A stretch of 25,683 bases of DNA from an uncultured Candidatus Saccharibacteria bacterium (GCA_964467495.1 CAYXQM010000001.1:1-25683), one strand, 5' to 3'; counted from the stretch's first letter, positions 10,073 through 24,864 are shown. Made by a program: numbers and translations. Notes: generated by a model not told the origin, from the letters alone.

Positions 10073-11743
10073 ATGAAAATTAAAGAAAAAATTGAAAAGT
10101 GGACTAAAGAAACATTAAATACGGGAAAAGTAATTTTAGTGCACCCGAAGGATATTAAAAATGGGGATTATTCTTTTTTCTCTTCTTCTGAAAATTCAGA
10201 AAAAGATGTAGAGAGATTGAATGAAAATAAAATAAAAGAAATAGAAAAAATAGAAGTAGTTGGTAAATTTATAAATTTTCATTTATCAAAAGAATTTTTT
10301 GCTGAGGCTGTCTCTGAAATAAATAAACAAAAAGAAAAATTTGGTAGTAATAATTTACTTGAAGACCAAAAAATAATAATTGAATATACCAACACTAATG
10401 TTTTGAAACCGATGCATATAGGACATCTTATGGGCAATGTCATTGGTGAATCCTTGTCTCGGATTATTGAAAATAGTGGTGCTAAAACCAAAAGAAACAC
10501 TTACCAAGGTGATACCGGCCTGCATATTGCCAAAGCTGTGTGGGGTATAAGAAAAAATGGTGGTCAGAAAGAAGGAGATTTATCAGCCAAAGCTGATTAC
10601 ATTGGCCGATCTTACGCTTTAGGAGCGGATGCTTACGAAGATGATGAAAAAGCCAAAAACGAAATAATAGAAATAAACAAAAAGCTTTTTGAGCAATCAG
10701 ACAAAGAACTTGTTGATCTATATAAATGGGGCAGGCAAGTCTCTTTGGATCATTTTGAAGAACTTTACAAAAAACTTAGCACTAAATTTGATTATTACTT
10801 TTTTGAAAGCCAGGTAGCGGAAGATGCTCTAAAAATTGTTAAAGAAAATATTGGCAATGTTTTTGAAGAAAGCGATGGGGCCATTGTTTTCAGGGGAGAA
10901 AAATTTGATCCCAAGCTCCATACTCGAGTCTTTGTCACTAGCCAAAACATACCAACCTACGAAGCTAAGGATATCGCCCACGCCATCAGAAAAGAAAAGG
11001 AATTTAAATCGGATAAATCTATAATTGTTACCGCCAATGAACAGGACGAATATTTCAAAGTGGTTATAAAGACTTTGGAGCAAATAAATAAAGAAATTGC
11101 AGACAAGACCACCCATCTTTCTCATGGAATGCTTAAATTGCCGACCGGCAAGATGTCTTCTAGAAAAGGGAATGTTATTACTGGAGAAAGTTTGATAAAA
11201 AAAGTTGAAGAATTGGTGGTAGAAAAAATAAAAGACAGAGAATTTGATGATAAAGAAAAAAATGAAATAACAGAAATAGTAGCTATTGGAGCAATTAAAT
11301 ATTCAATACTTAGACAAGCAATTGGGGGAGACATTATTTTTGATTTTGGTAAATCGATTTCGTTTGAAGGAGATTCGGGGCCATATTTGCAATATACTGC
11401 AGTGCGCGCTAACTCTGTGCTCAAAAATGCCAAAAAATTAGACCACACTCTTAAAATATCAAAGGGCACCTTTGATACTTGGGAGACGATAGAAGTAGAA
11501 AAAATGCTTTATAGGTTTCCGGAAGTAGTAGAGAGAGCTGGAAAAGAATACGCTCCACACCACATTGTTACCTATTTAACTGAACTGGCTGCTGCTTTTA
11601 ACAGCTTCTATACAAAAGAAAAAATAATCGACGAAGCTAACCTAAATGCTTCGGCTTACAAAATTGCTCTCACTCAAGCCATCTTCCATACTCTCCACAA
11701 CGGCCTTTATCTCCTTGGTATAAAGGTTCCGGAGAGAATGTAG
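10073..11743 (+). CDS. argS: Arginine--tRNA ligase
   Basis: KPMHIGH (HIGH), GKMSSRKG, GDSGPYLQYTAVR, C-terminal VPERM. Confidence 0.96.
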   Translation: MKIKEKIEKWTKETLNTGKVILVHPKDIKNGDYSFFSSSENSEKDVERLNENKIKEIEKIEVVGKFINFHLSKEFFAEAVSEINKQKEKFGSNNLLEDQKIIIEYTNTNVLKPMHIGHLMGNVIGESLSRIIENSGAKTKRNTYQGDTGLHIAKAVWGIRKNGGQKEGDLSAKADYIGRSYALGADAYEDDEKAKNEIIEINKKLFEQSDKELVDLYKWGRQVSLDHFEELYKKLSTKFDYYFFESQVAEDALKIVKENIGNVFEESDGAIVFRGEKFDPKLHTRVFVTSQNIPTYEAKDIAHAIRKEKEFKSDKSIIVTANEQDEYFKVVIKTLEQINKEIADKTTHLSHGMLKLPTGKMSSRKGNVITGESLIKKVEELVVEKIKDREFDDKEKNEITEIVAIGAIKYSILRQAIGGDIIFDFGKSISFEGDSGPYLQYTAVRANSVLKNAKKLDHTLKISKGTFDTWETIEVEKMLYRFPEVVERAGKEYAPHHIVTYLTELAAAFNSFYTKEKIIDEANLNASAYKIALTQAIFHTLHNGLYLLGIKVPERM

Positions 11744-11773
11744 AACTTAGCTTTATTATTTTAACCATGAATG

Positions 11774-11809
11774 TTTAAAGAATGGTTCGCACGAAGGATT
11801 CCATAAAAA
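11774..11809. promoter_or_regulatory. Repeat copy 1 upstream of arsR; candidate operator
   Basis: 31/36 identical to 12125-12160; imperfect palindrome ATGG...CCAT. Confidence 0.5.
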
Positions 11810-11835
11810 CATGGAGTATGTTAAAATTAGATAAT

Positions 11836-12096
11836 ATGAAAAAATTAGAAAAAATTATAAAAGCTTTTGGAAATGAAAGTCGGCTTAAGATTCTTAAATA
11901 TTTGAAAAGTAAAAAATCTGCCTCAGTTATTGATATAGCAAAAACAAACAAACTCTCTTATAAAGCGGTCTCTAAACACCTGGGCATTCTTTATCAGGTG
12001 GATATTGTAGATAGAACTCAAAGCGGATATGAAATGCGATACAAAATCTCGAATTCTTTAGACCCCAGAGCTTTTGCTATCCTCAGATTGATTTAA
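11836..12096 (+). CDS. ArsR/SmtB family winged-HTH regulator (true start probably ATG 11836, not 11782)
   Basis: IKAFGNESRLKILKYL, SVIDIA, AVSKHLGILYQVDIV, YEMRYKI. Confidence 0.88.
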   Translation: MKKLEKIIKAFGNESRLKILKYLKSKKSASVIDIAKTNKLSYKAVSKHLGILYQVDIVDRTQSGYEMRYKISNSLDPRAFAILRLI

Positions 12097-12124
12097 CATC
12101 TCGAATTCTTTTTGCACAGTTTTA

Positions 12125-12160
12125 TTTATAGAATGGTTCGCCCGAAGGGTTCCATAAGAG
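12125..12160. promoter_or_regulatory. Repeat copy 2 upstream of the disrupted secreted-protein gene; candidate operator
   Basis: agaatggttcgcccgaagggttccataa, 26/28 identical to 11779-11806. Confidence 0.5.
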
Positions 12161-12230
12161 ATGAGGAGTAATTTTAGTTATGCACAAAAGTTTTTGTATT
12201 TTTAAAGTTTGGAACGATTTAATTTATTTA

Positions 12231-12330
12231 ATGAAGATGAAAAATGTTTGGATAATCTGTGTGTTTTCTTTTTTATTTATTTTTGCCTTTGCCAAAAATT
12301 CTTATGCGGAAATTACTTATCCGTATACAA
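12231..12330 (+). pseudogene. 5' fragment (signal peptide) of a secreted protein, cut by the IS
   Basis: MKMKNVWIICVFSFLFIFAFAKNSYA/EITYPYT: basic N-region, hydrophobic core, SYA cleavage-like site; the stop arises 3 nt inside the IS end. Confidence 0.7.
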
Positions 12331-13264
12331 CGTAATCTAATCAATAGCTTGGACGTGATTTAATAATTGTATTGGGGCGCGAAATGAAATTCCCATGTGC
12401 AATCTTTCGGTATTGTAATACTTTAAATATTTTTTAAGAGCCTCGTTGATTAAAGGAACTTCTCTCTTAACTTTGTCCAAACATTCTTCCTGCACTGTTC
12501 GATTGAATCTCTCGATGTGTGAGTTGTCATTGGGTTTGCCAATTCTGGTGTAGCGATGATTCTTTTTGATCTGACCCACAAACCACATACCAAACTCCAG
12601 TCCATGATCAGATTGAAGCATGAGGAATGAGAAGTTTGCTTCTCTTTGGGCTTCTCTCACAAAATCTAACATCATTCTGCTATTCATTTTTTCATAACAT
12701 TTTGCATACACCCATCTTGAAAAGACATCAATCAATACAAAAACATATATTCTGGTCTTTTCTCCAGTCATGAGATGAATAGTGTCAATCTCAACCAAAT
12801 TACCAGCTTTTAGAGGGTACGGACGATCTACATGAGGATGAAATCGTTTCCATGGACTTCTCTTGTTTAATAGTCCGGTTCGGTCTAGTGTGCGTTTGAC
12901 AGACGAGAGAGATATTCCAATTCCTTGATTCAGAAGCTCTTGATGTATGACCTCAGCACATCTTTTGGTCTTGAGTCTTTGGTGGAAGATTTTCCATATC
13001 ATATCATTGGTTAATTCTTTCGGATGATGTTTTGGTCTCGATGAGAGTGTCGGTATGAGATGATATCCGTATCTTTCTGCTTTCTTGACCCATTTGCATA
13101 TGGTACTGGAGCCTACACCAAACCGTCGACCGGTTTCGGTTGGTGTGTGACCTCTTCTGACCATATCTGCCGCTTGTTGACGCACTTTCGGCATGTGCGG
13201 ATTTTGTGTGTATGCCATATGCTCCGATTCTACCTTATTGCGTCCAAGCTATTGAACCATTACG
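12331..13264 (-). mobile_element. IS481-like insertion sequence, 934 bp
   Basis: Terminal inverted repeats cgtaat-ctaa-tcaatagcttggacg (12331-12355) and cgtccaagctattga-acc-attacg (13241-13264); single transposase; no target duplication visible. Confidence 0.85.
12337..13218 (-). CDS. IS481-family DDE transposase (HTH + rve integrase core)
   Basis: HTH RRFGVGSSTICKW; VEIDT, IDVFSR, QSDHGLEF, HIERFNRT. Confidence 0.9.
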   Translation of the reverse strand: MAYTQNPHMPKVRQQAADMVRRGHTPTETGRRFGVGSSTICKWVKKAERYGYHLIPTLSSRPKHHPKELTNDMIWKIFHQRLKTKRCAEVIHQELLNQGIGISLSSVKRTLDRTGLLNKRSPWKRFHPHVDRPYPLKAGNLVEIDTIHLMTGEKTRIYVFVLIDVFSRWVYAKCYEKMNSRMMLDFVREAQREANFSFLMLQSDHGLEFGMWFVGQIKKNHRYTRIGKPNDNSHIERFNRTVQEECLDKVKREVPLINEALKKYLKYYNTERLHMGISFRAPIQLLNHVQAID

Positions 13265-13990
13265 AATATTTTGACAGATAAAATAGTAGATAGCGTTGTG
13301 TATTTAAGTTGGGTTGAAAACTTACTATCAATACAACTGCAATCACCCATAGATATGGTTGTTATTGCTCCCGATGGTAAAAAAATAGGCAAAAACTTTG
13401 AAACGGGAGAAGAATACAACGAAATTCCACTGGCGTTTTATTCCGGATATCAAACAGATGATGAATATATAACTATTCCAAATCCTTTGAATGGGGAGTA
13501 TAAAATAGAAATACAAGGTACGGAAAATGGAGGGAAATATGGGGTAATAACTAGTTTTATCACAGAAGAAACACTAGCGACCAGTGAGATTATTGGCACC
13601 ACAGAACCATCCCAAATAACCAACCTATCTGTTTCTGTAGATAATCAAAATCCAGAAAATATAGAAACAGAGAAAGAAGTGACATTAGAGATATTATTAA
13701 ATGACATTAATAAATCTTATGAATTAGGGTGGATTACTGACAAAAAACTCAAAGATAAGCTCGTTAAAAAAGTAGAAAAGATAATAAAAATAGAAGATAA
13801 AATAGGAAAAACTGAAGAGAAAAATAAAAAGAACAAAGACAAAAAAATTGAAAAGATGGTAGACAGGATAGACAAAAAAGCTGCCCAAGCTTTAATTATA
13901 GAATTAAAAGGATATGAAAAAGACAAAATGAATGAACAAGCGTATAATCTTATTAAATACGATTTAGAATATTTAATAAATAATAATTAA
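13265..13990 (+). pseudogene. C-terminal remnant of a large secreted protein (SPID..IAPDGKKIG beta module plus helical tail)
   Basis: Frame opens exactly at the IS end; upstream in-frame TGA lies inside the IS; the track start TTG 13271 has no RBS. Confidence 0.6.
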
Positions 13991-13993
13991 AAA

Positions 13994-14380
13994 ATGAGAA
14001 ATAATATTTTGTTGTTTATTTTAGTTTTAGCAATAAGTCTCGCCACAGCTTCTTATTTTGGTGGTTGGTATGATTATTTTGTACCACAGTATGATTACTC
14101 ACTATTGGGAATTGATCAGGAGACTATTGTGTATGTAGCTGGTTTATTTTTTGCTTACGTATTTTTTGTCCCGTTTATATTTGAATTACTTGGGAAAGGA
14201 AGCAAAAACAAATGGATGGTTATTCTTTTGGCTCCAGTGATACTTTTTTATCTATATGATAGTGTGGCACTTGTCTACATCCCCATTATCGCCAGCATTG
14301 CCGGCTGTCTGATTGCAAAACTGACTAATCTTGTTATTCGGCAATTCAGACATCCTAACCCGCCGATGGTGATTAAGTGA
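13994..14380 (+). CDS. Small multi-pass membrane protein ending HPNPPMVIK
   Basis: About four hydrophobic segments; starts 3 nt after the remnant stop. Confidence 0.75.
   Translation: MRNNILLFILVLAISLATASYFGGWYDYFVPQYDYSLLGIDQETIVYVAGLFFAYVFFVPFIFELLGKGSKNKWMVILLAPVILFYLYDSVALVYIPIIASIAGCLIAKLTNLVIRQFRHPNPPMVIK
14356..14378 (+). repeat. 23-bp direct repeat, copy 1 (last codons of the membrane-protein gene)
   Basis: taacccgccgatggtgattaagt, identical to 15239-15261. Confidence 0.9.
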
Positions 14381-14390
14381 AGATAAAATA

Positions 14391-14426
14391 AACTCTTGAA
14401 TTAACTCTAGAGTTAATTCAAGAGTT
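14391..14426. repeat. Perfect 36-bp palindrome with no loop
   Basis: aactcttgaattaactct|agagttaattcaagagtt. Confidence 0.95.
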
Positions 14427-14443
14427 ACAAATAAATTAAAATT

Positions 14444-14974
14444 ATGGAAAAACTAGACCCAAATTTACAAAAAAAATGGGAAAGTGAACTTGCCAAGGAA
14501 GGTTTACCTGAAACTCCTTCGGGAAAAGAAACAGTTGTTGAAGAAACAGGAGGTGATATCCTTAACGCTGAAGAAAAAATGCTTGCAAAAGCCATGGAGG
14601 ATATTTTAAGAGAGTATAATGCTCTACCAAGTGAGATTCAGCAAGATATTATTGATGATATTAAAAAACGAAAAGAAGTAGGAGCAAGTTTTAAAACAAT
14701 TTCTGACCGCTTACATCTTTTGGTCCAAAAAGGTTCCGAGCTTGATGTCATGACTAACGAAGATTCAGACAGATACTACCAACCACAACCTTCACTGGAA
14801 GAAATAAAATTGAAAGAGGAAATAGAGGGAAGAAAAGAGATTGTTTCAAGGGATATTGATGACCTTTTAAAAAAATTAGAGCAAATTAAACAAAAAGGTA
14901 TTAATAAAGCAAACAGAAGAGGGAATTCTGATGAAAACAAACCGCCAAAGTTACCTCCAGATCAAATACATTAA
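14444..14974 (+). CDS. Hypothetical acidic, helical protein
   Basis: 176-aa ORF with host-like composition; no family recognised. Confidence 0.7.
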   Translation: MEKLDPNLQKKWESELAKEGLPETPSGKETVVEETGGDILNAEEKMLAKAMEDILREYNALPSEIQQDIIDDIKKRKEVGASFKTISDRLHLLVQKGSELDVMTNEDSDRYYQPQPSLEEIKLKEEIEGRKEIVSRDIDDLLKKLEQIKQKGINKANRRGNSDENKPPKLPPDQIH

Positions 14975-14978
14975 AATT

Positions 14979-15161
14979 ATGGGTAGAAAATCTTTAGAAA
15001 ATCGTAATGTAAGGAAACTTACAAAAACAGGGGGAGGGAAGAGCATCTCTGTAACTTTACCAATTGAATACATTCGAGAATTAAAATGGAAAGACCGCCA
15101 AAAGGTGATTGTAAAAAAGAAAGACAAATCCTTGATTGTTTCTGACTGGAAACCAAAGTAA
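14979..15161 (+). CDS. AbrB/MazE/SpoVT-type DNA-binding protein (60 aa; start ATG 14979)
   Basis: RKLTKTGGGKSISVTLPIEYIRELKWKDRQKVIV, swapped-hairpin pattern. Confidence 0.8.
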   Translation: MGRKSLENRNVRKLTKTGGGKSISVTLPIEYIRELKWKDRQKVIVKKKDKSLIVSDWKPK

Positions 15162-15238
15162 AAAATATACGAAGAATATCCAGCCGTTTAGACGCCCTCA
15201 AACTTCGCTCTGGTTAGCATAAAGTTTTGCTGAACAAG

Positions 15239-15261
15239 TAACCCGCCGATGGTGATTAAGT
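15239..15261 (+). repeat. 23-bp direct repeat, copy 2 (not in an ORF)
   Basis: Identical to 14356-14378; reads NPPMVIK-TAA but is preceded by an in-frame TGA at 15231. Confidence 0.9.
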
Positions 15262-15349
15262 AAAAGGGGGATAAAGGAGTGCTGGATATTTTATATTTGC
15301 TATAATTGAAGTAAGTATGTGTCCACGTTCGATTTGCTCCCCCTAGGCA

Positions 15350-15392
15350 GGGTCAGCTGCGCTCGGCGAGTGCGCGGCTGACCCCCTTTTTT
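15350..15392 (+). terminator. Strong GC-rich hairpin plus T-tract
   Basis: gggtcagc (15350-15357) / gctgaccc (15377-15384) with further inner pairing; T6 at 15387-15392. Confidence 0.7.
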
Positions 15393-15435
15393 ATGTTAAA
15401 ATAATGGCAGTTACTACTATTTAATTTGAATAAAT

Positions 15436-15840
15436 ATGATAAAAGAATTCAAACAATTTTTATTAAGAGGAAACGTGGTTGACTTGGCGGTCGGGGTGGT
15501 TATTGGTGCCGCTTTTGGAACCGTGGTATCTGCTTTAGTTTCAGATTTGCTTACTCCTTTCATCGCTGCCATTGCCAAAGTTCCAGATTTTTCCGGTTTG
15601 GCTTTCACTATCAACGGAAGTCAATTTATGATAGGCCATTTTATCAACGCTGTTATATCGTTTGTATTAGTCGCTGCCGCCATATTCTTTTTTGTGATTA
15701 AGCCCATGAATATGCTCATTTCTCGTTCTCATAAAGAACCGCCTGCTGATCCTACTACTAAAAAATGCACCGAATGTCTGAGTGAAATACCAATTGAAGC
15801 CAAACGTTGCTCTCACTGCACTCAAAAAATAGCTGAATAG
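15436..15840 (+). CDS. mscL: Large-conductance mechanosensitive channel with C-terminal 4-Cys ribbon
   Basis: EFKQFLLRGNVVDLAVGVVIGAAF, GHFINAVISF; CTEC...CSHC tail. Confidence 0.95.
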   Translation: MIKEFKQFLLRGNVVDLAVGVVIGAAFGTVVSALVSDLLTPFIAAIAKVPDFSGLAFTINGSQFMIGHFINAVISFVLVAAAIFFFVIKPMNMLISRSHKEPPADPTTKKCTECLSEIPIEAKRCSHCTQKIAE

Positions 15841-15870
15841 AAATTTTAAGGAAAAGAGTATAATGTGGCC

Positions 15871-16995
15871 ATGTCAGAACCGCTGGCCAGCAAAATACGC
15901 CCTCAAAATCTGGACCAATTCGTTGGTCAGAAGCATTTGGTGGGTAAAAATAAGCCTATTAGGGTGGCTATTGAAAAGAAGCACCTTTTTTCTTTTGTCC
16001 TGTGGGGACCGCCTGGATGTGGTAAAACTACTTTGGCTCGTATCTATTCTAAAAGTCTTGATGCTGAAATGTTTGGGCTTTCGGCTGTTTCGGCAGGCAA
16101 AGAAGATATTCGGAAAATCTTAAAACAAAAGGTTACCAGACCCAAAATTTTATTTTTAGACGAAATTCACCGATTTAATAAGGCTCAACAGGATTTTCTT
16201 CTGCCTTATGTTGAAAGCGGAGAGATGACTTTAATAGGGGCTACTACCGAAAATCCTAGTTTCGAAATTATCTCACCACTTCTTTCCCGAGCCAGAGTTT
16301 TTGTGCTGGAGTCTTTGAATGAAGAGGAAATGAGTAACATTATTGCTCGGGCGGAGGTCAAAATAAAAAAAGATGCCGAAGAGTGGCTTATTAATATGGC
16401 AGACGGAGATGCTCGGCAGGCTATTGCCGTTATTGAAGCCTCAATGAATTTATACGGTGATTGTTCCTTGGAACATTTGAAAGAAGCTTTGCAGTCAAAA
16501 TTTTTACGCTACGACAAGAAAGGAGAAGAACATTACAATATTATCAGTGCCTTTATAAAAAGTATGCGCGCCAGCCAGCCCGATGCCGCTCTCTACTATA
16601 TGTGCCGAATGATTGATGTCGGAGAAGACCCCAAGTTTATTGCTCGGCGAATGGTGGTTTTTGCCAGTGAAGACATAGGATTGGCCCAACCGACAGCTCT
16701 GGTGGTGGCCAACGCCGTTTTTCGAGCGGTAGAAACTATTGGTTTGCCAGAGTGCACTGAAAATCTGGCTCATGGAGTGATTTATTTATCCCAAGCCAAA
16801 AAAGATCGCTCGGCCTACGACGCTTACTTAAAAGCTATGGCTGACGTAAAAAGTTATGGCGCTCTGCCGGTGCCTCTCAAAATCCGCAATCCGGTGACCA
16901 AATTGATGAAGGATTTGGATTATGGTAAAGATTATGAAAAATACACCAAAGACGACCTTCTGCCTGAAAAATTAAGCGGCAAAAAATATTTATGA
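15871..16995 (+). CDS. rarA: Replication-associated recombination protein A (RarA/MgsA AAA+ ATPase); alternative GTG start at 15865
   Basis: PLASKIRP, WGPPGCGKTT, LDEIHRFNKAQQD, GATTENP, HYNIISAFIKSMR, ASEDIGLA. Confidence 0.95.
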   Translation: MSEPLASKIRPQNLDQFVGQKHLVGKNKPIRVAIEKKHLFSFVLWGPPGCGKTTLARIYSKSLDAEMFGLSAVSAGKEDIRKILKQKVTRPKILFLDEIHRFNKAQQDFLLPYVESGEMTLIGATTENPSFEIISPLLSRARVFVLESLNEEEMSNIIARAEVKIKKDAEEWLINMADGDARQAIAVIEASMNLYGDCSLEHLKEALQSKFLRYDKKGEEHYNIISAFIKSMRASQPDAALYYMCRMIDVGEDPKFIARRMVVFASEDIGLAQPTALVVANAVFRAVETIGLPECTENLAHGVIYLSQAKKDRSAYDAYLKAMADVKSYGALPVPLKIRNPVTKLMKDLDYGKDYEKYTKDDLLPEKLSGKKYL

Positions 16996-17008
16996 TAAAA
17001 TTAAAAAT

Positions 17009-17317
17009 ATGAAAAATACAAAGTTAATATTTTGGGCGGTGGTGAATTCGTTGGGGATTGTGGTTTACGCCTCTTTGGTCGCTTTTGTTATGTTTAACGG
17101 AGAAAAGTTTTTTGGAAAAGCTGACGATTTTACCGGACCCCTGATGATTCTACTTCTTTTTGTGGTTTCTGCGGTCATTACTGGCTCTCTGTTTTTGGGA
17201 CGTCCAATTTACTTATATTTTGAGGGCTTAAAAAAGGAAGCCATCAAACTTTTCTTTTACACCCTCTTCTCTCTCCTCCTCATCACCCTCATAATTTTCG
17301 CTGCTAAAATCTTATAG
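17009..17317 (+). CDS. Hypothetical 3-TM membrane protein
   Basis: Three hydrophobic segments; LFLGRPIYLY. Confidence 0.7.
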   Translation: MKNTKLIFWAVVNSLGIVVYASLVAFVMFNGEKFFGKADDFTGPLMILLLFVVSAVITGSLFLGRPIYLYFEGLKKEAIKLFFYTLFSLLLITLIIFAAKIL

Positions 17318-17336
17318 AATAGACTCTATAAGGAGT

Positions 17337-17365
17337 TTGACTTTATCTGTTGATTCATATAGTAT
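17337..17365 (+). promoter_or_regulatory. Sigma70-type promoter for the rpsS-rplE block
   Basis: TTGACT (17337-17342), 17 nt, TAGTAT (17360-17365); leader hairpin tccgcc-caa-ggcgga at 17373-17387. Confidence 0.6.
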
Positions 17366-17404
17366 ATTTGAGTCCGCCCAAGGCGGATTAAATTTACCTA
17401 TTTT

Positions 17405-17746
17405 ATGTCAAGGTCGCTTAAAAAGGGTCCTTATGTGGATCCGCGTGTACTCAAAAAGATAGAAGGCAAAAAGCCGGACGATATTGGAATTGTCAAAACT
17501 TGGTCACGAGCTTGTGTCATTGCTCCTGAGATGGTGGGTTTTACGTTTGGAGTCCACAACGGTCGGGACCATATTGAAGTCTTTGTGACTGAGGATATGG
17601 TTGGTCATCGCTTGGGAGAATTTTCTTTAACTCGCAAGTTTGTAAAACATGGTGGTAAAATGCAGAAAGATTTGGAAGCTAAGAAAAAAGAAGATGAAAT
17701 CAATGCCGCTAAATCCGCCAAAGCTTCTGTAGAAGCCAAAACATAA
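17405..17746 (+). CDS. rpsS: 30S ribosomal protein S19 with C-terminal extension
   Basis: [33 protein letters not shown]. Confidence 0.97.
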
Positions 17747-17748
17747 TT

Positions 17749-18108
17749 ATGAAAGAGATAACAGCCCAACTGAATAGTTACAGACAATCACCGAGAAAAG
17801 TGCGGGTGGTGGCCGATGCTATTAGGGGTAAAAATATTGCTGAAGCCAAGAAAAAACTCAATTTTATTATTAAACGAGCAGTTTCACCTCTACATAAACT
17901 TTTGAATTCCGCCATAGCTAATGCCAAAGATTTGGGTGTCGAGACCGAAAATCTGAAAGTCAAATCTATCACTGTTGATGGTGGTAAAATTTTATACAGA
18001 CGTAGACCGGTTTGGCATGGAATGGCTCATCCTATCCGAAAGCGCACTTCGCATATTACCATTGTTCTTTCAGAAACTAAAAACTCTAATCTAAAATCTA
18101 AAGATTAA
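17749..18108 (+). CDS. rplV: 50S ribosomal protein L22
   Basis: RQSPRKVRVVAD, LLNSAIANA, KRTSHITIVL. Confidence 0.96.
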   Translation: MKEITAQLNSYRQSPRKVRVVADAIRGKNIAEAKKKLNFIIKRAVSPLHKLLNSAIANAKDLGVETENLKVKSITVDGGKILYRRRPVWHGMAHPIRKRTSHITIVLSETKNSNLKSKD

Positions 18109-18112
18109 CAAA

Positions 18113-18772
18113 ATGACTCACATAGTACATCCATATGCGCATAGATTAGGTATTATTCGGGACTGGAAGTCGCGCTGGTTTGGCGTGAAGTCAACATACA
18201 AAGAAAATTTGAAAGGCGATGTTTTGATTTATGAATATTTGAAGAAACGCTTAAAGGGAGCTTTTGTAAATTCTATAGAGATGGAAAGAAGCGTTAAAGT
18301 TTTCAGAATTATTATAGAATCATCCCGACCGGGAGTGATTATCGGCAGAAGCGGCGAAGGTATGACTAAACTTAGGGACGATATCGTCAATTTTATGAAG
18401 CGTCGGAAAGTCAGCCTCAAGGAAGAGTTGAAAATAGACATCAAGGAAGTGAAATCACCGGAATCTTCAGCTATGATAGCGGCCCAAATGGTTGCTGAGG
18501 GTCTAGAAAAGAGAATGCCGTTTCGAAGGGTGGTTAAGCAAATGGTTGAAAAAGCTTACGCTAACCGCGATGTCCAAGGTGTCAAAATAACTTTGTCTGG
18601 CATTATGGGTGGTTCCAATATGGCCAGAGTGGAAACAAAAAAAGTGGGCCGCATTCCTTTGCAAACACTACGAGCCGATGTTGACTATGCTTTTTATGAA
18701 GCCACTGTTCCTCTTGGTAAGATAGGCATAAAAGTTTGGATTTATAAAGGGGAAATTTTTGCTAAAAAATAA
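18113..18772 (+). CDS. rpsC: 30S ribosomal protein S3
   Basis: HPYAHRLG, WKSRWF, RPGVIIGR, GRIPLQTLRADVDY, GIKVWIYKGE. Confidence 0.97.
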   Translation: MTHIVHPYAHRLGIIRDWKSRWFGVKSTYKENLKGDVLIYEYLKKRLKGAFVNSIEMERSVKVFRIIIESSRPGVIIGRSGEGMTKLRDDIVNFMKRRKVSLKEELKIDIKEVKSPESSAMIAAQMVAEGLEKRMPFRRVVKQMVEKAYANRDVQGVKITLSGIMGGSNMARVETKKVGRIPLQTLRADVDYAFYEATVPLGKIGIKVWIYKGEIFAKK

Positions 18773-18781
18773 TTTATTATC

Positions 18782-19201
18782 ATGCTTTTCCCTAAAAAAG
18801 TTAAATACAGAAAATGGCAGACTATGCGTAAAAATCCCAAAAAAATGGGACCAGCCACTCGTGGGATAGCGGTTTCTTTTGGTTCCCATGGACTTAGGGC
18901 TATGGCTCCAAACCGAATTACTTCCAACCAGATTGAATCAGCCAGAAAAGCTATCACTAAACATGTTGGTAAAACCGGCAGAGTTTGGATACGCGTTTTC
19001 CCTGACAGACCTTTCACTAAAAAACCGGCAGAAGTTAAGATGGGCAAAGGAAAGGGGGATATAGAAGGATACTGCGCTAAAGTTTCGGCTGGGCAAATTA
19101 TGTTTGAGGTGGATGGGGTGACAGATATAGTGGCCGTGGAATCTTTACGTAAAGGAGGTACCAAAATGCCGATGAAGACCAAAATAATAGCTAGAGAATA
19201 A
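18782..19201 (+). CDS. rplP: 50S ribosomal protein L16
   Basis: MLFPKKVKYRK, QIESAR, WIRVFPD, MGKGKG. Confidence 0.97.
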   Translation: MLFPKKVKYRKWQTMRKNPKKMGPATRGIAVSFGSHGLRAMAPNRITSNQIESARKAITKHVGKTGRVWIRVFPDRPFTKKPAEVKMGKGKGDIEGYCAKVSAGQIMFEVDGVTDIVAVESLRKGGTKMPMKTKIIARE

Positions 19202-19214
19202 AAAATAAGAAACA

Positions 19215-19394
19215 ATGAAAGATTCAGTTAAAAAAAGTAAAACCGACTTAATAAAAGAACTTAATGAAAAAAGTTTGGCTTTGCGCGACATTCGATTTGG
19301 AGTGGCGGGTGGTAAAAGTAAAAATGTTAAAGAATATAGCAATATAAAAAAAGAAATAGCCAGAATTAAAACAGCATTAAGTATTAAGGAATAA
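19215..19394 (+). CDS. rpmC: 50S ribosomal protein L29 (59 aa, missed by the track)
   Basis: Hand translation ...[33 protein letters not shown]; lies between rplP and rpsQ. Confidence 0.9.
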
Positions 19395-19399
19395 GTATT

Positions 19400-19663
19400 A
19401 TGGATGAAAAAAAGGAACAAAAAAATACGGAATCAGCAAAAACAAAAAGAGCTTTGAAAGGGGTAGTAGTATCAGACAAAATGAAAGATACAGCAGTAGT
19501 TTCAGTTACCAGATTTGTTAAACACCCGAAATATAAAAAATATCACAAGATAAGCAAAAGATACAAGGCTCATGATGTCGGCAATACTAAAAAAGTAGGA
19601 GACAAAGTTGAAATAGTGAGTTGTCGCCCGATTTCGAAAGATAAACATTTCAAAATTTTATGA
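19400..19663 (+). CDS. rpsQ: 30S ribosomal protein S17
   Basis: [29 protein letters not shown]. Confidence 0.96.
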
Positions 19664-20037
19664 TTCAAGTTCAAACACTGGTAAAAATAGCCGATAACTC
19701 AGGCGCTAAAATAGGGCGAGTTTTCAAGATTCCCGGTAGTTCCAAAAAGCGATATGCTAAAATCGGAGAGCTGGTAATTTTTTCAGTTCAAAAAGCCGAA
19801 CCTAGAAAGGAAATTAAAAAGAAAGCCATTTTAACCGGTTTAGTGGTTCGCCAAAAAGCACCTTTGCGCAGAAAGGACGGTTCTTACATTCGTTTTGATG
19901 AAAATGCGGTTATTGTAATAGACAAGAAAAAAGGAGAAATTACACCAAGAGCAGGACGCATTTTCGGGCCAATACCAAGAGAAATCGCTGAGGCTGGACA
20001 TCAGGCAATTGTTTCTTTGGCACCGGAGATAATCTAA
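19660..20037 (+). CDS. rplN: 50S ribosomal protein L14
   Basis: [36 protein letters not shown]. Confidence 0.96.
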
Positions 20038-20042
20038 ACATC

Positions 20043-20270
20043 ATGAAAATTAAAAAAGGAGACAAAGTAATAATCATTACCGGAAAAGATAAAGGCAAAT
20101 CAGGGCCGGTAATCAAAGCTTTCCCAAAAAATGAGATGGTGTTGGTGGAAAAAGTTAATATAAAAAAATTACATAAAAAACCCAGAAAACAAGGAGAAAA
20201 AGGCAAGATAATAGAGCAAGCTACCCCGGTGCATGTATCTAATGTTAAAAAAATACAGAACACAAAATAA
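20043..20270 (+). CDS. rplX: 50S ribosomal protein L24 (short, 75 aa)
   Basis: KIKKGDKVIIITGKDKGK, VEKVN, PVHVSNV. Confidence 0.93.
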   Translation: MKIKKGDKVIIITGKDKGKSGPVIKAFPKNEMVLVEKVNIKKLHKKPRKQGEKGKIIEQATPVHVSNVKKIQNTK

Positions 20271-20275
20271 AAAAT

Positions 20276-20812
20276 ATGAAAAGTTTCAGACAAAAAACAA
20301 AAGAAGTTTTTAAAGAACTCAAAGAAAAATTGGGGCTTAAAAATATTATGCAGTCTCCCAAAATTGAAAAAGTAGTCATTAATTCCGGTGTTGGTAAATT
20401 TAATGATAAAAAGAAAATAGATTTGGTTGTAGACAGATTGTCTAAAATCACAGGACAGAAACCCATAACCAGAGGAGCTAAAAAATCGGTGGCTTCATTT
20501 AAATTAAGAGAAGGGGATATTGTTGGGGTGCAAGTCACTTTGCGCGGTGAAAAAATGTGGAGTTTCTTGGATAGACTTTTTAATATTGCTTTACCACGTA
20601 CCAAAGACTTTCGCGGACTTTCTCTCGGGGCTGTAGATGAGATGGGGAATTATACTATGGCTGTCAGAGAGCACACGGTATTTTCAGAAACTTCTGACGA
20701 AGATATAAAAGACATCTTCGGCTTTTCGGCTACCATTGTCACTTCTCTCAAATCAAAATCAGACGCTTTAGAATTCTTCAAAGCTTTAGATTTTCCGTTT
20801 AAGAAAAAATAA
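20276..20812 (+). CDS. rplE: 50S ribosomal protein L5
   Basis: PKIEKVVINSGVG, ITGQKP, AKKSVASFKLREG, TLRG, IALPRTKDFRG. Confidence 0.97.
   Translation: MKSFRQKTKEVFKELKEKLGLKNIMQSPKIEKVVINSGVGKFNDKKKIDLVVDRLSKITGQKPITRGAKKSVASFKLREGDIVGVQVTLRGEKMWSFLDRLFNIALPRTKDFRGLSLGAVDEMGNYTMAVREHTVFSETSDEDIKDIFGFSATIVTSLKSKSDALEFFKALDFPFKKK
20774..20812 (+). repeat. 39-bp repeat, copy 1 = last 13 codons of rplE
   Basis: FFKALDFPFKKK-TAA; 33/39 identical to 21301-21339. Confidence 0.9.
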
Positions 20813-20833
20813 TTTTTGTGATATAATGCTTTT

Positions 20834-21070
20834 ATGATTCAAAATTATATTGAAAACTATTTAAAAAAAGCCAGATACGAAATAATAGACGGCGGCAGGA
20901 AATTTTACGCGGAAGTAAAAGAATTGCGTGGCGTTTGGGCTACCGGTAAAACTCTTGAAGAATGCCGATATAATCTTGCTAACACCATTGAAGGTTGGTT
21001 GATTTTGAGATTGAAAAAAAATCTTTCTATTCCGAATTTCAGAGTGCCTAGTGCCCGTCTGAAAGTTTAA
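20834..21070 (+). CDS. hicB: HicB-like antitoxin (no C-terminal DNA-binding domain)
   Basis: FYAEVKELRGVWATGKTLEECR...IEGWL. Confidence 0.85.
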   Translation: MIQNYIENYLKKARYEIIDGGRKFYAEVKELRGVWATGKTLEECRYNLANTIEGWLILRLKKNLSIPNFRVPSARLKV

Positions 21071-21078
21071 TTTTTTAT

Positions 21079-21300
21079 ATGTCTAAGTTAGGTCCGATAT
21101 CGTGGATCAAATTTGTAAGGAGAATGAGAGTTCTCGGTTTTAACGGACCTTACCAAGAAGGCAAACATCCTTATGTGATTAAAGGTAACATTTCTATTAC
21201 TATTCCAAATCCTCATGATGGAGAAATCAGCGTAGATTTACTCTCCCGCATCCTTCGCCAAGCTGGTGTTTCTAGAAACGTCTGGATGAGATTTAAATAA
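21079..21300 (+). CDS. hicA: HicA family mRNA interferase toxin
   Basis: LGF...EGKH (catalytic His), TIPNPH, LLSRILRQAG. Confidence 0.88.
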   Translation: MSKLGPISWIKFVRRMRVLGFNGPYQEGKHPYVIKGNISITIPNPHDGEISVDLLSRILRQAGVSRNVWMRFK

Positions 21301-21339
21301 TTTTTCAAAGCTTTGGGTTTTCCGTTTAAGAAGAAGTAG
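21301..21339 (+). repeat. 39-bp repeat, copy 2 = displaced rplE 3' end
   Basis: FFKALGFPFKKK-TAG; abuts the hicA stop. Confidence 0.9.
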
Positions 21340-21346
21340 TTCACTA

Positions 21347-22012
21347 CTAATGTGCGATAAAAAGGCCGACGACACGGCGGGCTCCAACAGAAAAGAGAAC
21401 TCGGCGAGCTTCGGAGAAAGAAGCCAAAGTGGTGTAAACATCATCCAAAACTATTATGGTGCGGTGGCCGACCCCAGAAGAGTCGGCCATCATGCTATTC
21501 TTTACATTCAAAAGTCGCTGGTCTCGTCCGAGCTCTGTTTGTCTCTTGGTCTCTCTGATCTTGCGGAGCGCCGTGTAAGAAATATCAAGATTACCCCCGG
21601 CCATTTTTTCAACCTCTTTTAAAAGTTCCTCGCATTGGTTAAAGCCCTTTTTTTGCTTTTCTTTTTTACTCATTGGCATAGGTACCAGAAGTGGCGGAGC
21701 GCCGTCAAATAAAGAAATATCAGAGGACATTTCCATTATTTCGTCATACAAATATTCGGCAATTCTTTTTCGCAAACCGGCATTGTTTTTGTATTTTATA
21801 GACCTGACTACGAGCTTTACTATTCTATTATCGTAATCAAACAAAACAAAAAGGTCTTTGACTCTGGTCTTGGATGAAGGCAGAAGGTTTCTCATTGTGG
21901 CGGCATCAAGCTCCAAAAGCCTTTGAATTTTGCGGTCTTCGGGTGCCAGCAGGTCTAGTGCTCTCCCCAGGGCATTTTTTACCCAACTTGCGGCTGACTT
22001 TAAAATAAACAT
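21347..22012 (-). CDS. comF: ComF/GntX-family phosphoribosyltransferase-fold competence protein
   Basis: SIKY, LVPMP, KGFNQ, KRQTEL, IIVLDDVYTT, GARRV. Confidence 0.82.
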   Translation of the reverse strand: MFILKSAASWVKNALGRALDLLAPEDRKIQRLLELDAATMRNLLPSSKTRVKDLFVLFDYDNRIVKLVVRSIKYKNNAGLRKRIAEYLYDEIMEMSSDISLFDGAPPLLVPMPMSKKEKQKKGFNQCEELLKEVEKMAGGNLDISYTALRKIRETKRQTELGRDQRLLNVKNSMMADSSGVGHRTIIVLDDVYTTLASFSEARRVLFSVGARRVVGLFIAH

Positions 22013-22056
22013 TGTGTTATAATTATCACTTAATTAAACAGAATTTCATAATTTTT

Positions 22057-23166
22057 ATGAGCTTTTTCTCGGATATTTTAAAAAAGAAGAACATTAGTGC
22101 TTTGGGCATTGATATCGGCTCTTCTTCCATAAAAGTAGTTCAGCTTCGAAAGAAAGGGGATAAAGCCATACTGGAAACTTATGGCGAATTATCATTGGGC
22201 CCATACGGCGGAGTTTCAGTGGGAGAATCTACAAATTTGCCAACTGAAAAAATTGCTCAAGCCATGAATGATCTCCTTTCTGAAAAAGAAGTTGCCGTAA
22301 CCACCAAAGTTTGCGGCATAGCCATTCCTTTTAGGGCTTCCTTGATGTCGGTTATAGAGATGCCAGCTAACATAAAAGAAAAAGAGTTGGCGACTATGAT
22401 ACCCATAGAAGCTCGAAAATATATACCAGTACCAATTTCCGATGTTACCATTGATTGGTCAATAATACCTAAACTAGAATCTGAAGACGAAGCTTCTAGG
22501 ACTGCTAATGTAAATAAGCCAGAAACAAGAGAAATTCTTTTGGTGGCTATTCATAATCGCATCATTGACCAATATAAAGAGATTGTCACTAAGTCCGGTC
22601 TGGATGCTAAATTTTTTGAAATAGAAGTTTTTAGTTCTATGCGAGCAGTCTTGGAAGGAATTAAAGGTGCTGTTATGATTTTTGATATGGGGGCTTCAAC
22701 TACTAAACTTTATATTGTGGAAAGAGGACTGATTCATTATTCGCATACTATCAACAGAGGGTCTCAGGATATTACTGCCAACATTGCCCGAATTATAAAT
22801 GTTTCTACAGAAGAAGCCGAAGTTCTCAAAAGGTCTGTGGGTATGGGTAAAACCTTGGATGGAGCAGATTTGTCGGAAGCGGTTTCTGTGGTGGCAGACC
22901 AAATATTTTCGGAGGCCAATAGATTTTTGCTAGATTTTCAAAAGAAAGAGAACCGAAATGTTAAATCAATCTTTCTAACCGGTGGTGGCTCGGCCCTCAA
23001 GGGATTTAGAGAACTGGCAGCTCAGAATTTTAAAATAGAAGTAGTAGCCGGCGATCCTTTTGAAAAAGTAGAAACTCCAGCTTTTCTAGAAGAAATCCTT
23101 AAGGTCACTGGTCCTGAATTTACTGTTTCCGTCGGCGCTGCTTTGAGGTGTTTGGGGGAACTCTGA
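22057..23166 (+). CDS. pilM: Type IV pilus assembly protein PilM (start probably ATG 22057)
   Basis: LGIDIGSSSIKVVQL, EARKYIPVP, FDMGASTT, LTGGGSALKG. Confidence 0.93.
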   Translation: MSFFSDILKKKNISALGIDIGSSSIKVVQLRKKGDKAILETYGELSLGPYGGVSVGESTNLPTEKIAQAMNDLLSEKEVAVTTKVCGIAIPFRASLMSVIEMPANIKEKELATMIPIEARKYIPVPISDVTIDWSIIPKLESEDEASRTANVNKPETREILLVAIHNRIIDQYKEIVTKSGLDAKFFEIEVFSSMRAVLEGIKGAVMIFDMGASTTKLYIVERGLIHYSHTINRGSQDITANIARIINVSTEEAEVLKRSVGMGKTLDGADLSEAVSVVADQIFSEANRFLLDFQKKENRNVKSIFLTGGGSALKGFRELAAQNFKIEVVAGDPFEKVETPAFLEEILKVTGPEFTVSVGAALRCLGEL

Positions 23167-23199
23167 CCCCACCCCTAACCCCTCCCCAAAGGAGAGGGG
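23166..23199 (+). repeat. REP-like half element of the same family as the folD insertion
   Basis: accccacccctaacccctccccaaaggagagggg; starts on the last base of the pilM stop. Confidence 0.85.
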
Positions 23200-23231
23200 A
23201 ACGGCTCAACGAACAATCCCGTTGAGCCGTT
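23200..23231. terminator. Perfect 12-bp stem-loop downstream of pilM
   Basis: aacggctcaacg-(8 nt)-cgttgagccgtt; only a short T run follows. Confidence 0.5.
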
Positions 23232-23275
23232 TAAAACCCTTTATTTAAAGCCATATTTTGACAAGTTGTTTTCTC

Positions 23276-23305
23276 TTGACTTTTTGTATTATTATGTGCT
23301 ATACT
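23276..23305 (+). promoter_or_regulatory. Sigma70-type promoter inside the pilM-pilN interval
   Basis: TTGACT, 18 nt, TGc-TATACT. Confidence 0.5.
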
Positions 23306-23345
23306 TAGCATTAGATTCAGCTTGTATTTTGGGGCTGAAAATTGA

Positions 23346-23522
23346 CAAAGGAAAAGGAGAATGGTTCGTAAAATCCGTGATCTAAAAAATAAGATGAATC
23401 AAGGGTTGATTTCAGATGAATATTTTAACAAATCTATTAATTCGTACATGGGAATATTAATGCACTGTAAGGGGCATAAAATTTATGATCAAATCTCGAA
23501 AATGGTCAGAGCCCCCTCTTAA
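23346..23522 (+). pseudogene. Probable C-terminal (thumb) remnant of a group II-like/DGR-type reverse transcriptase
   Basis: Hand translation QRKRRMVRKIRDLKNKMNQGLISDEYFNKSINSYMGILMHCKGHKIYDQI resembles the K-R-M...S-Y-x-G-x-x-x-H pattern; no YxDD region present. Confidence 0.5.
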
Positions 23523-23546
23523 AATAAGAGGGGGCAGGGGGTGTGA
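23511..23546 (-). repeat. REP-like half element in opposite orientation
   Basis: gccccctctt-aaaat-aagagggggc (perfect 10-bp stem) followed by agggggtgtga; same C-run / hairpin architecture. Confidence 0.65.
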
Positions 23547-23620
23547 TATTTAGAAGAACAAAGTAATCAACATAAAAGATTTACACTTGCTTATTTTTTT
23601 AGAGTATAATTAATGATGAT

Positions 23621-24304
23621 ATGGCATCTAATTTTCAATCATCATTTATACCGAGTATCCCCAAAGATCCAACCTCTAAAGAGGTCTTTAAAAAGAAAAA
23701 CACCAGTATTCTCGGGATATTGGCGATGATTCTTTTTATTATTTCTTTGTTGATGGCAATTGGGATATATGCATACAAAAGCATTTTGCGGAATGATATA
23801 ATAACTTTACAGGCAAAGATGGCTGATGCTGAAGGGAGTATAGATAAAGAAACCATAAACGATATGGCCAAGTTCAGCGGGAAATTGGGTATTGTCAGGT
23901 CGATTGTTATTAAGCATCAGGTTGTTTCGAATTTTTTGGATGTTTTAGCTAAAGATACTGTTAGTTCGGTCTATTTCACTAGTTTCGATTATGATGCTCT
24001 TTCGCCGAATGAATTGTCCGTTACTATGCAGGGCAGAGCATCTAATTATGCCAGTTTGGCTTTACAAGATAGCGTTTTTTCAAAAAATAAGAATTTCAGA
24101 TCCGTGGATTTCTCTAATCTAGATTTGACCGAAGGAGGTCTGGTTTCTTTTAACTTGACCATTTCTGTTGACCCACAAATTGCTGTCTTTAATGCTGTTC
24201 CTGAAAAAGAAATTAATGAGACCACAACCGCGAGTAGCACTGCAGATATAGACGATGTCTCTTCAGAATTAGACGCATTAGAAAATATGGATTTAGGTAT
24301 TTAA
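23621..24304 (+). CDS. pilN: PilN-like type IV pilus assembly protein
   Basis: N-terminal TM, coiled coil, then a ferredoxin-like segment (VTMQGRASNYASLALQ...VSFNLTI); position after pilM. Confidence 0.65.
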   Translation: MASNFQSSFIPSIPKDPTSKEVFKKKNTSILGILAMILFIISLLMAIGIYAYKSILRNDIITLQAKMADAEGSIDKETINDMAKFSGKLGIVRSIVIKHQVVSNFLDVLAKDTVSSVYFTSFDYDALSPNELSVTMQGRASNYASLALQDSVFSKNKNFRSVDFSNLDLTEGGLVSFNLTISVDPQIAVFNAVPEKEINETTTASSTADIDDVSSELDALENMDLGI

Positions 24305-24308
24305 AAAT

Positions 24309-24851: not shown

Positions 24852-24864
24852 TGGATTTAGTGAA

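Follow-up and report, generated by a model that had tools for sequence, protein, structure and literature searches.

Duplicated gene ends flanking small cassettes in a Saccharibacteria genome: recurring insertion scars of addiction-type genes

Insertion with long target duplication has been described for restriction-modification gene complexes (Nobusato 2000, Gene 259:99; Furuta, Abe & Kobayashi 2010, PMC2853133). In these cases, the repeats that flank the inserted genes are single-copy in the empty genomes and often span a stop or a start codon, the hosts are mostly naturally competent, amplification is possible, and the mechanism is unresolved; the criterion applied is a target duplication of >30 bp (PMC2853133). 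Here, we analyze two cassettes of comparable anatomy in a 25,683-nt stretch of DNA (GCA_964467495.1, CAYXQM010000001.1:1-25683; hereinafter, the window) from an uncultured Candidatus Saccharibacteria bacterium. The pairs of direct repeats around both cassettes are real, recurring insertion scars of addiction-type genes, not the trace of a new gene-capture machine. Insertion with long target duplication is known, and the toxin-antitoxin cargo and the host belonging to the Candidate Phyla Radiation (CPR) form its extension here. The original prediction for this locus had envisaged a candidate undescribed gene acquisition system. The phenomenon is not undescribed, as the same scar is known for restriction-modification genes (Nobusato 2000; Furuta 2010, PMC2853133). 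Nor do the data demonstrate a dedicated system: the repeats have no shared core, no cognate recombinase was found, and the adjacency of comF and pil genes is family-wide synteny rather than a functional link.

Other described processes resemble parts of this anatomy. Cis-mobilizable elements (CIMEs) and elements that replace the 3' end of their target gene, such as e14 in icd and the tRNA-targeting islands, are integrase-less and att-flanked or restore the gene end. The minimal mobile elements of Neisseria, as Saunders and Snyder are said to have described in 2002, are hotspots between conserved genes that are exchanged by flanking homologous recombination. Another process known from natural transformation is homology-facilitated illegitimate recombination (see PMC3240628 for a summary of the work of de Vries & Wackernagel 2002 and of Prudhomme et al. 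2002). A product of the latter has one end within homology and the other at a joint with 3–10 bp of microhomology.

The window is the entire contig C1 of the metagenome-assembled genome G000 (566 kb in 107 contigs, 76.6% complete, 37.6% G+C), and its DNA is present in lake-water metagenomes. The genomes of the relatives span 0.5–0.9 Mb, and the host is an ultra-small bacterium of the CPR (Patescibacteria). In what follows, G001 onward denote the related genomes compared (40 searched), L-numbers denote other contigs or loci compared, and some gene labels are motif-based only, such as that of the mraY-like gene, which has no Pfam match.

Two cassettes between duplicated gene ends

Both cassettes were confirmed where they had been predicted, each between direct repeats (26 nt and 43 nt, respectively) that end at a stop codon. 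Their features are as follows.

Cassette 1 (883-bp unit)
13994..14380, + strand: target gene, encoding a 128-aa membrane protein (open reading frame (ORF) call; homologues in G024 and G018)
14356..14381: first copy of the direct repeat, forming the functional end of the gene (TGA stop)
14391..14426: perfect 36-nt palindrome, terminator-like on scan
14444..14974, + strand: cargo, orphan 176-aa helical, acidic protein
14979..15161, + strand: cargo, predicted AbrB/MazE/SpoVT-like DNA-binding protein of 60 aa
15239..15264: direct repeat copy 2, relic tail NPPMVIK-TAA, outside any ORF

Cassette 2 (527-bp unit, hicBA)
20276..20812, + strand: rplE, target gene (ribosomal protein L5; PF00281, PF00673)
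20772..20814: first copy of the direct repeat, forming the functional end of rplE (TAA stop)
20799..20827, + strand: promoter-like site of hicBA (-35-like TTAAGA, TG-extended TATAAT)
20834..21070, + strand: hicB, antitoxin gene (PF21748, E 4e-26)
21079..21300, + strand: hicA, toxin gene (PF07927, E 3e-8)
21299..21341: direct repeat copy 2, relic rplE tail FFKALGFPFKKK-TAG
21347..22012, - strand: gene of the ComF family, converging on rplE and bounding the hotspot on the right (TIGR00201, E 2e-19, under the curated cut-off of NCBIfam)

In pair 1 (14356-14381 and 15239-15264), the 26-nt copies differ by one mismatch and are spaced by 883 nt; copy 1 closes the 128-aa ORF at TGA. Pair 2 (20772-20814 and 21299-21341) consists of 43-nt copies with six mismatches (86% identity, longest perfect run of 15 nt) spaced by 527 nt, of which the first is the end of rplE at TAA and the second (FFKALGFPFKKK-TAG) directly follows the hicA stop. 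In each pair, the second copy reads in frame as a relic that has a stop of its own and belongs to no ORF. Compared with the >30 bp criterion for target duplications, repeat 2 lies above and repeat 1 below. That the copies differ in the stop codon, as originally noted, holds in the window but is incidental as a feature, given that both copies of the rplE end carry TAA in L052, a co-occurring strain.

The cassette repeats are not chance occurrences. The whole genome contains 20 local direct repeats of at least 20 nt, compared with 0–2 in shuffled genomes, and the best score in a shuffled genome is 36 bits, compared with 46 and 44 bits for the two cassette pairs. Each cassette repeat is unique in G000, being found only at its two places. 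Neither are these repeats assembly artefacts: the same cassette junctions are present in contigs from at least five other samples. Overlap artefacts of SPAdes 55-mers were considered and rejected, given that such repeats flank runs of N (C4, C16, C100), unlike those of the cassettes, which are shorter and imperfect and are found again in other assemblies.

In cassette 2, hicB and hicA are adjacent, 8 nt apart, and qualify as a HicAB type II toxin-antitoxin module, a kind defined by neighbouring genes for HicA and for HicB of the UPF0150/RNase H-like fold. The -35-like hexamer of hicBA sits within the rplE tail in G000, and a TGTG-N-TATAAT leader also precedes hicB at other loci. To judge from these features, the mobile unit of cassette 2 is minimal, comprising a putative TG-extended -10 promoter, hicB and hicA.

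The cargo of cassette 1 is less readily classified. The AbrB-like protein is matched by PF04014 with an E-value of 8e-4, below the cut-off, and by TIGR02609 at 4e-3, and its gene has many stand-alone homologues (60–76% identity) in varied contexts. The 176-aa ORF has one homologue cluster, at 47% identity, among 5.8 billion proteins, and yielded no family match in Pfam or NCBIfam, no informative match in the Atlas and no structural lead. The homologue (175 aa) is an ordinary chromosomal gene downstream of argS, with neither repeats nor a palindrome. No recognisable toxin was detected by family scans of the cargo ORFs. Thus, of the predicted toxin-antitoxin genes in each cassette, HicB and HicA of cassette 2 stand, but for cassette 1, the label is only half supported because the AbrB/MazE-like match is weak (sub-threshold) and the other ORF is an orphan.

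The 22-nt core of the cassette 1 palindrome is found at 13 loci, all in Patescibacteria and mostly just past gene ends; several of these have an A run on one side and a T run on the other, and there is covariation in the outer stem. The full 36-nt palindrome recurs almost unchanged across Saccharibacteria, Kaiserbacteria, Parcubacteria and further genomes of Patescibacteria (L061-L073; G000 C52:1279-1301), with at most three copies per genome, usually directly 3' of a gene end, and has no Rfam match at gathering scores. This palindrome is generic rather than a cassette-specific site and looks like a terminator-like hairpin, or a site bound by a protein, that is shared throughout the phylum.

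Scans of all cargo ORFs of both cassettes against Pfam and NCBIfam revealed no recombinase or mobility domain, in agreement with the original prediction, and no core is shared by the three repeat pairs of G000 (cassette 1, cassette 2 and the rpiB case described below). Several known types of element were considered and rejected. A target-site duplication by a transposase does not fit, with no terminal inverted repeats, repeats of 26 and 43 nt that are too long, and copies that are allelic. An Xer/dif-type site does not fit either, as no dif-like dyad was seen by inspection and the three repeats have nothing in common. For an integron cassette, there is no attC-type site, the boundaries are copies of gene tails, and the sole palindrome is the generic hairpin. 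Finally, diversity-generating retroelements combine a nearby reverse transcriptase with a variable and a template repeat (VR/TR) of ~100–150 nt that differ at adenines of the noncoding template; there is no reverse transcriptase beside either cassette, the repeats span 26 and 43 nt, and the A bases are in the coding copy. The retroelement-type repeat of L157, described below, looks different.

Empty sites, alternative cargo and recurrence

The junction between rplE and comF is a hotspot at which the cargo varies. Seven relatives, representing six genera, have the stops of rplE and comF only 3–35 nt apart, so that these are empty sites. In six other relatives, the junction holds other cargo, namely, a gene with a receiver domain (G018, G008), a RibD_C/DHFR-like gene (G024), an ABC transporter (G002), a 5-kb block of membrane proteins (G007), and a 5-kb defence-like island of an EcoRI-type adenine methylase, an AAA_15 ATPase, Bro-N and a GmrSD_N-HNH nuclease (G001, L020). 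In G000, the relic copy 2 ends 7 nt from the comF stop, and the relic, the spacer and the comF stop together reproduce the geometry of the empty site. The inserts of the relatives lack repeats, and duplication of the rplE tail is found at this hotspot only in G000.

The hicBA unit itself occurs at other places. In G023, rplE is followed after 84 nt by hicBA, around which there is an imperfect repeat of 11 nt, the target of which is single-copy in the empty G014. With G023 serving as a proxy for the donor, the sequence past its hicA stop has 5 nt (AATTT) in common with the beginning of the G000 relic, a putative microhomology. The unit of promoter, hicB and hicA is also located after comM (G031/L085), a tRNA (L082) and the mraY-like gene (L084/87/88). 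In a more distant contig (L079), rplE is followed after 325 nt by hicBA and then comF, without a relic, and in two other distant ones (L080/L081), a GmrSD/HNH nuclease gene directly precedes a truncated hicBA, again followed by comF.

Two side observations concern the same region. In L030 (G006:C10; 1470-1499 and 3502-3530), 25 of 29 nt are common to the rplE tail, which is extended to DFPFKKTAEKKK here, and to the start of a 78-aa ORF. This ORF begins MSKVIDFPFKKT... and lies 2 kb downstream, past an insert of 41% G+C; another genus may, in this case, hold a second duplication of the rplE tail. The S10-spc operon of ribosomal protein genes is interrupted after rplE family-wide (17405-22012; L003-L027), with rplE converging on comF-pilM, and the S14-S8-L6-L18-S5 block is sited elsewhere in this family (for example, G011, L133).

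At the site of cassette 1, the relatives have a single tail of the 128-aa gene, directly followed by a different downstream gene. The tail of this protein, HPNPPMVIK-stop, is kept in relatives, with the G024 and G018 homologues ending in KHPN(S/P)PMV(I/V)K-TAA; the TAA of the relic is, accordingly, the stop codon of the relatives' target gene, and on this comparison, the relic looks native. The interior of cassette 1 had no DNA match among the 40 relatives, and look-ups of the exact 128-aa, mscL and 230-aa proteins yielded no contig with an empty site.

In keeping with the original prediction, the architecture recurs beyond the two cassettes. In the third case from G000 (contig C27), gapA and PemK are followed by 236 nt, a relic rpiB head of 39 nt, a promoter, fic and the intact rpiB. 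Both rpiB heads encode MKIYFASD(H/Y)AGF, with different Ser codons (AGT and TCA); in the relatives, gapA is followed directly by rpiB, or by fic and rpiB without a relic. The repeat around hicBA in L087 comprises the last codons and the stop of the upstream mraY-like gene, that in L102 spans the stop of a PIN gene, that in L089/90 begins at a stop, and that in L100 consists of a promoter and a gene head. In L116, a locus of an AbrB homologue, the order is a relic TatD head (~105 nt), higB-higA-abrB-deaminase and then TatD in intact form. Single sites that have gathered several cassettes are seen in L080, L089 and C27. Such further cases exist, and the cassettes do not map to remnants of larger known prophages or integrative and conjugative elements.

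Among 35 metagenomic hicB loci (~27 distinct), flanking direct repeats of at least 20 nt are found at 7 of the ~27 distinct hicBA loci, compared with 5 of 400 random placements in G000. The second background, other places on the same contigs, gives 103 of 985 but is inflated by contigs rich in repetitive extragenic palindromic (REP) sequences, so that the enrichment is only semi-quantitative. A census of 0.8 Mb from seven relatives produced one further small repeat-flanked insert (L122, a tRNA-flank case); the remaining local repeats there are mostly REP-like, retroelement, tRNA or paralogue repeats.

The locus is also a mosaic of strain variants. The contig L054 differs from the window by 28 single-nucleotide polymorphisms (SNPs) in rplE (20273-20677) and then by none through the tail, hicBA and the relic up to 21403, which places a break of the strain tract inside rplE, at about 20678. 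L051 carries 14 SNPs within 100 nt of pilM, and L043 has several SNP clusters of 50–80 nt. Across 10600-25000, comparison of the window with L043 and L050-L054 yields clusters of 10–28 SNPs in 50–400 nt separated by kilobases of identity, a pattern that indicates very frequent short-tract homologous recombination among co-occurring strains, with donors diverged by 7–15%. L052 differs from the window in the right half of the relic, across the spacer and on into comF; therefore, functional rplE alleles probably supply tails that overwrite the relic, starting from comF. Of the six differences within pair 2, five are on third codon positions (chance 13/729 = 0.018), an excess that such overwriting would explain and that requires no joining of two alleles in the original event.

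Host recombination as the proposed mechanism, and rival explanations

On balance, we lean, without great assurance, towards reading both cassettes as recombinase-independent insertions at a gene boundary driven by host recombination, that is, as insertions with long target duplication. Under this reading, we infer a transformation route and a joining chemistry as follows. Incoming DNA from a relative would bring a conserved gene end together with the cassette into a competence-equipped, recombining Patescibacteria population, and host homologous recombination within the conserved gene would integrate one side. On the other side, closure would come from an illegitimate joint at a microhomology, which may link sister chromatids; alternatively, a circularised fragment carrying the gene end and the cassette would enter by a single crossover. 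The product would be the gene with its intact tail, the cassette and a left-over tail. The repeats would end at a stop or begin at a start codon because selection retains only those products in which the essential gene is whole. The toxin-antitoxin-like cargo would resist loss; the relic tail would stay coding-like because it is overwritten by short homologous tracts, which derive from relatives lacking the cassette and have their anchor in the downstream gene; and the repeats could later drive tandem amplification or looping-out.

Acquisition of the cargo by recombination of the host, in a competence-equipped and strongly recombining population, fits the data, which supports the original prediction in part. 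G000 encodes ComEC, ComF, a pilus locus and RecA, and Saccharibacteria have been experimentally shown to be naturally competent (PMC10633639). Duplicated homology is a signature of a single crossover with a circle (PMC3240628), and interchromatid pairing triggered by transformation provides a way to duplication instead of deletion (PMC3784515).

Several observations weigh against the reading just given. Classical homology-facilitated illegitimate recombination usually results in deletion, not duplication (PMC3240628), and because of this, an extra assumption, either the interchromatid joint or a circular substrate, is needed. The perfect identity of 15–23 nt is very short for RecA-driven single crossovers. 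Neither a cassette-free strain of the host species nor a donor was found, none of the steps of the pathway was directly observed, and DprA was not found in G000, which is 76.6% complete. None of the relatives shows synteny with the right flank of cassette 1 (mscL), so that the empty site is undocumented. Finally, the location of hicBA beside comF in distant contigs (L079, L080) suggests that the insertion may be old and the repeat pattern, in part, secondary.

The comparison with the described processes is mixed in each case. As in insertion with long target duplication, the units are small and addiction-type, carry no mobility gene, and leave the target gene intact thanks to the repeats; cassette 2, with the single rplE tail in seven relatives, and the gapA/rpiB case in C27 match the single-copy target criterion, and cassette 1 does so in part (single tail in relatives, with another downstream gene). 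The differences are in the cargo, which consists of HicAB, Fic and an AbrB-like protein with an orphan ORF rather than restriction-modification genes, in the repeat length (26 and 43 nt compared with >30 up to ~400), in the CPR host, and in the copies of repeat 2, which are allelic (86%) rather than near-identical. Because the cargo is toxin-antitoxin-like, the explanation by DNA breakage proposed for restriction enzymes cannot apply here. With homology-facilitated illegitimate recombination, the cassettes have in common the one-sided homology in a conserved gene, the putative AATTT microhomology at the other joint (by the G023 proxy), the competent host and the tracts that end in rplE, whereas duplication of the recipient tail here contrasts with the textbook insertion accompanied by deletion. 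The fixed sites with alternative cargo in each lineage, rplE/comF and gapA/rpiB, recall minimal mobile elements, which, unlike the cassettes, reportedly leave no duplicated gene end. Similarly to integron cassettes, including the toxin-antitoxin cassettes of superintegrons, these are promoter-poor units of less than a kilobase that often encode toxins-antitoxins, and integron cassettes are circular when excised; however, the boundaries here are copies of the neighbouring genes, and there is neither an attC-type site nor an integron integrase context.

The resemblance to CIMEs underlies an alternative that we consider rather unlikely, namely, that the cassettes are integrase-less, att-flanked elements or remnants thereof, moved in trans by a recombinase encoded elsewhere, with the duplicated gene end being an attP-borne replacement of the target 3' end, as in e14/icd or tRNA-targeting elements. 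The repeats indeed derive from a gene 3' end, the spare end keeps the gene intact, there is no internal recombinase, and accretion is observed (L080, L089, C27); such gene-end-restoring architecture is classical for tyrosine integrases. Potential sources of activity in trans exist in G000, which encodes a single tyrosine recombinase of the Xer/phage type, on another contig beside phage-like genes, a 541-aa large serine recombinase beside a terminase and two partial resolvase matches. Furthermore, a 666-nt insert in G001 directly abuts a tRNA 3' end, as do some of the related hicBA units, and one contig links cassette 1 head to tail, as in a circle. Against this stand the lack of a shared att core in the three repeat pairs, the lack of a parent element with an integrase at rplE, the tail of the 128-aa gene or rpiB in the 40 relatives, and the number of unrelated targets (rplE, the membrane gene, rpiB, mraY-like, PIN, TatD), which would call for several specificities. 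The units, at 0.5–0.9 kb, are far smaller than CIMEs, repeat 2 is only 86% identical with no perfect run beyond 15 nt, and the hotspot inserts of the relatives lack repeats.

The head-to-tail contig (L046; ERZ27248895, k141_768563; MEGAHIT k141) is 1024 nt long (883 + 141), with identical terminal 141 nt, and links the end of cassette 1, via one repeat copy, to its start. It hints at a circle or a tandem copy of cassette 1. This form is seen in one of seven assemblies and the six others are integrated, which speaks against a circle; a false loop could arise at low coverage and be carried to k = 141 because the smallest k of MEGAHIT (21) is shorter than the exact repeat (23 nt). The k = 31 Logan contigs of four runs (coverage 4–6x, uninformative on rare forms) contain integrated junctions only, with neither a head-to-tail joint nor an empty site, and the 23-nt repeat core has no exact match metagenome-wide, in a collection that apparently excludes records near the genome of the window, and gives no count of empty sites or circle junctions. 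Circle capture through 20–40 bp of homology is one possible route, for which this single, perhaps artefactual, contig is the evidence.

Two broader views build on the circle. It is quite unlikely, in our estimate, that competent ultra-small Patescibacteria gain genes in general without a recombinase through units of a gene end and a cassette, perhaps 883-bp circles, that home by 20–40 bp and leave via the repeats; if true, this would amount to a self-propagating life cycle of addiction cassettes using host recombination alone. Still less probable is a dedicated mini-element, an 883-bp circle that replicates or persists outside the chromosome and homes into gene tails by short homology, with the mobility function provided by the 176-aa protein or the palindrome. 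Besides L046, the orphan status of this protein would suit such an element, but its 175-aa homologue is an ordinary gene without repeats or palindrome, the hairpin is generic, the AbrB-like gene is a common stand-alone gene, and the assemblies favour integrated forms as described above. It is highly improbable that no mobility is involved and that the repeats reflect old local duplications, gene conversion, assembly errors or a retroelement VR/TR pair. The hicBA-comF adjacency in the more distant L079 and L080/81 would be compatible with perhaps ancient residence, and retroelement tail repeats do exist in relatives (L157); the seven relatives with empty sites largely refute this explanation, which is also contradicted by the cargo that varies between relatives, by the junctions reproduced in at least five independent assemblies, and by the 43-nt repeat with no reverse transcriptase nearby and with A bases in the coding copy, the reverse of the retroelement pattern.

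How chromosomal toxin-antitoxin modules move and become fixed is an open question (PMC2654758). Insertion with long target duplication provides a precedent for the scars described here. To our knowledge, it is the sole described recombinase-less route with such anatomy and has been tied to restriction enzymes and DNA breaks. The same scar around HicAB, Fic and HigBA-type cargo suggests a mechanism of the host, transformation with recombination, rather than one of the cargo; that the cargo is non-nuclease argues for the same view. Insertions of this kind suggest a regular route by which streamlined, uptake-dependent genomes gain small selfish or defence genes.

Neighbouring and unrelated features

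The predicted neighbourhood of competence and pilus genes was recovered: rarA, the ComF-family gene, PilM, a weak PilO match and a PilB-type MshEN domain are adjacent to the cassettes.

The other local repeats of G000 comprise palindromic operators near an ArsR gene (11774/12125) and in C81, terminator hairpins (C95, C31), ribosome-binding-site or gene-boundary repeats in a phage-like region (C96, C61) and repeats of paralogues (C22, C89). The 33-nt direct repeat near the ArsR-family gene (11774-11806 and 12125-12157) brackets this gene (11818..12096), and each copy carries the 22-nt dyad GAATNNTTCGNNCGAANNATTC; a similar dyad pair in C81 (2613-2640 and 2936-2963) brackets a 112-aa ORF. Both pairs are probably operators rather than insertion scars.

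A 102-nt repeat (84% identical) in L157 (G005:C15, ~79-82 kb) joins the 3' end of a 209-aa gene with a noncoding copy that adjoins a 365-aa ORF resembling a reverse transcriptase. This is likely a diversity-generating retroelement and, as such, a confounder for a census of duplicated gene tails. In L136 (G011:C2, ~65-72 kb), at least six small genes with no relation to one another form an array, each after a conserved ~90-nt element with the palindrome TGTGGTTAAGCCACA, and several of the genes share the same end, a CCAGTTCTAACATCGTACACTAG tail; this could be either a cassette-array-like structure or a regulon.

Between the relic tail of cassette 1 and mscL lies a noncoding segment of 170 nt (15265-15435) with 42% G+C compared with ~36% around it; it contains a box resembling TTGCTATAAT and, ahead of a T run, a strong hairpin rich in G+C, has no Rfam match at gathering scores, and may be a small RNA or a leader. 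An insertion sequence, given for context only, is found 1.1 kb upstream of cassette 1.

12337..13218, - strand: IS481-type rve transposase (15-nt inverted repeats 12341-12355 and 13241-13255)

This IS481-type element removed ~530 N-terminal residues of a lipase-like protein, the full length of which is 764 aa in G007, and the ORF at 13271..13990 is the leftover C-terminal fragment.

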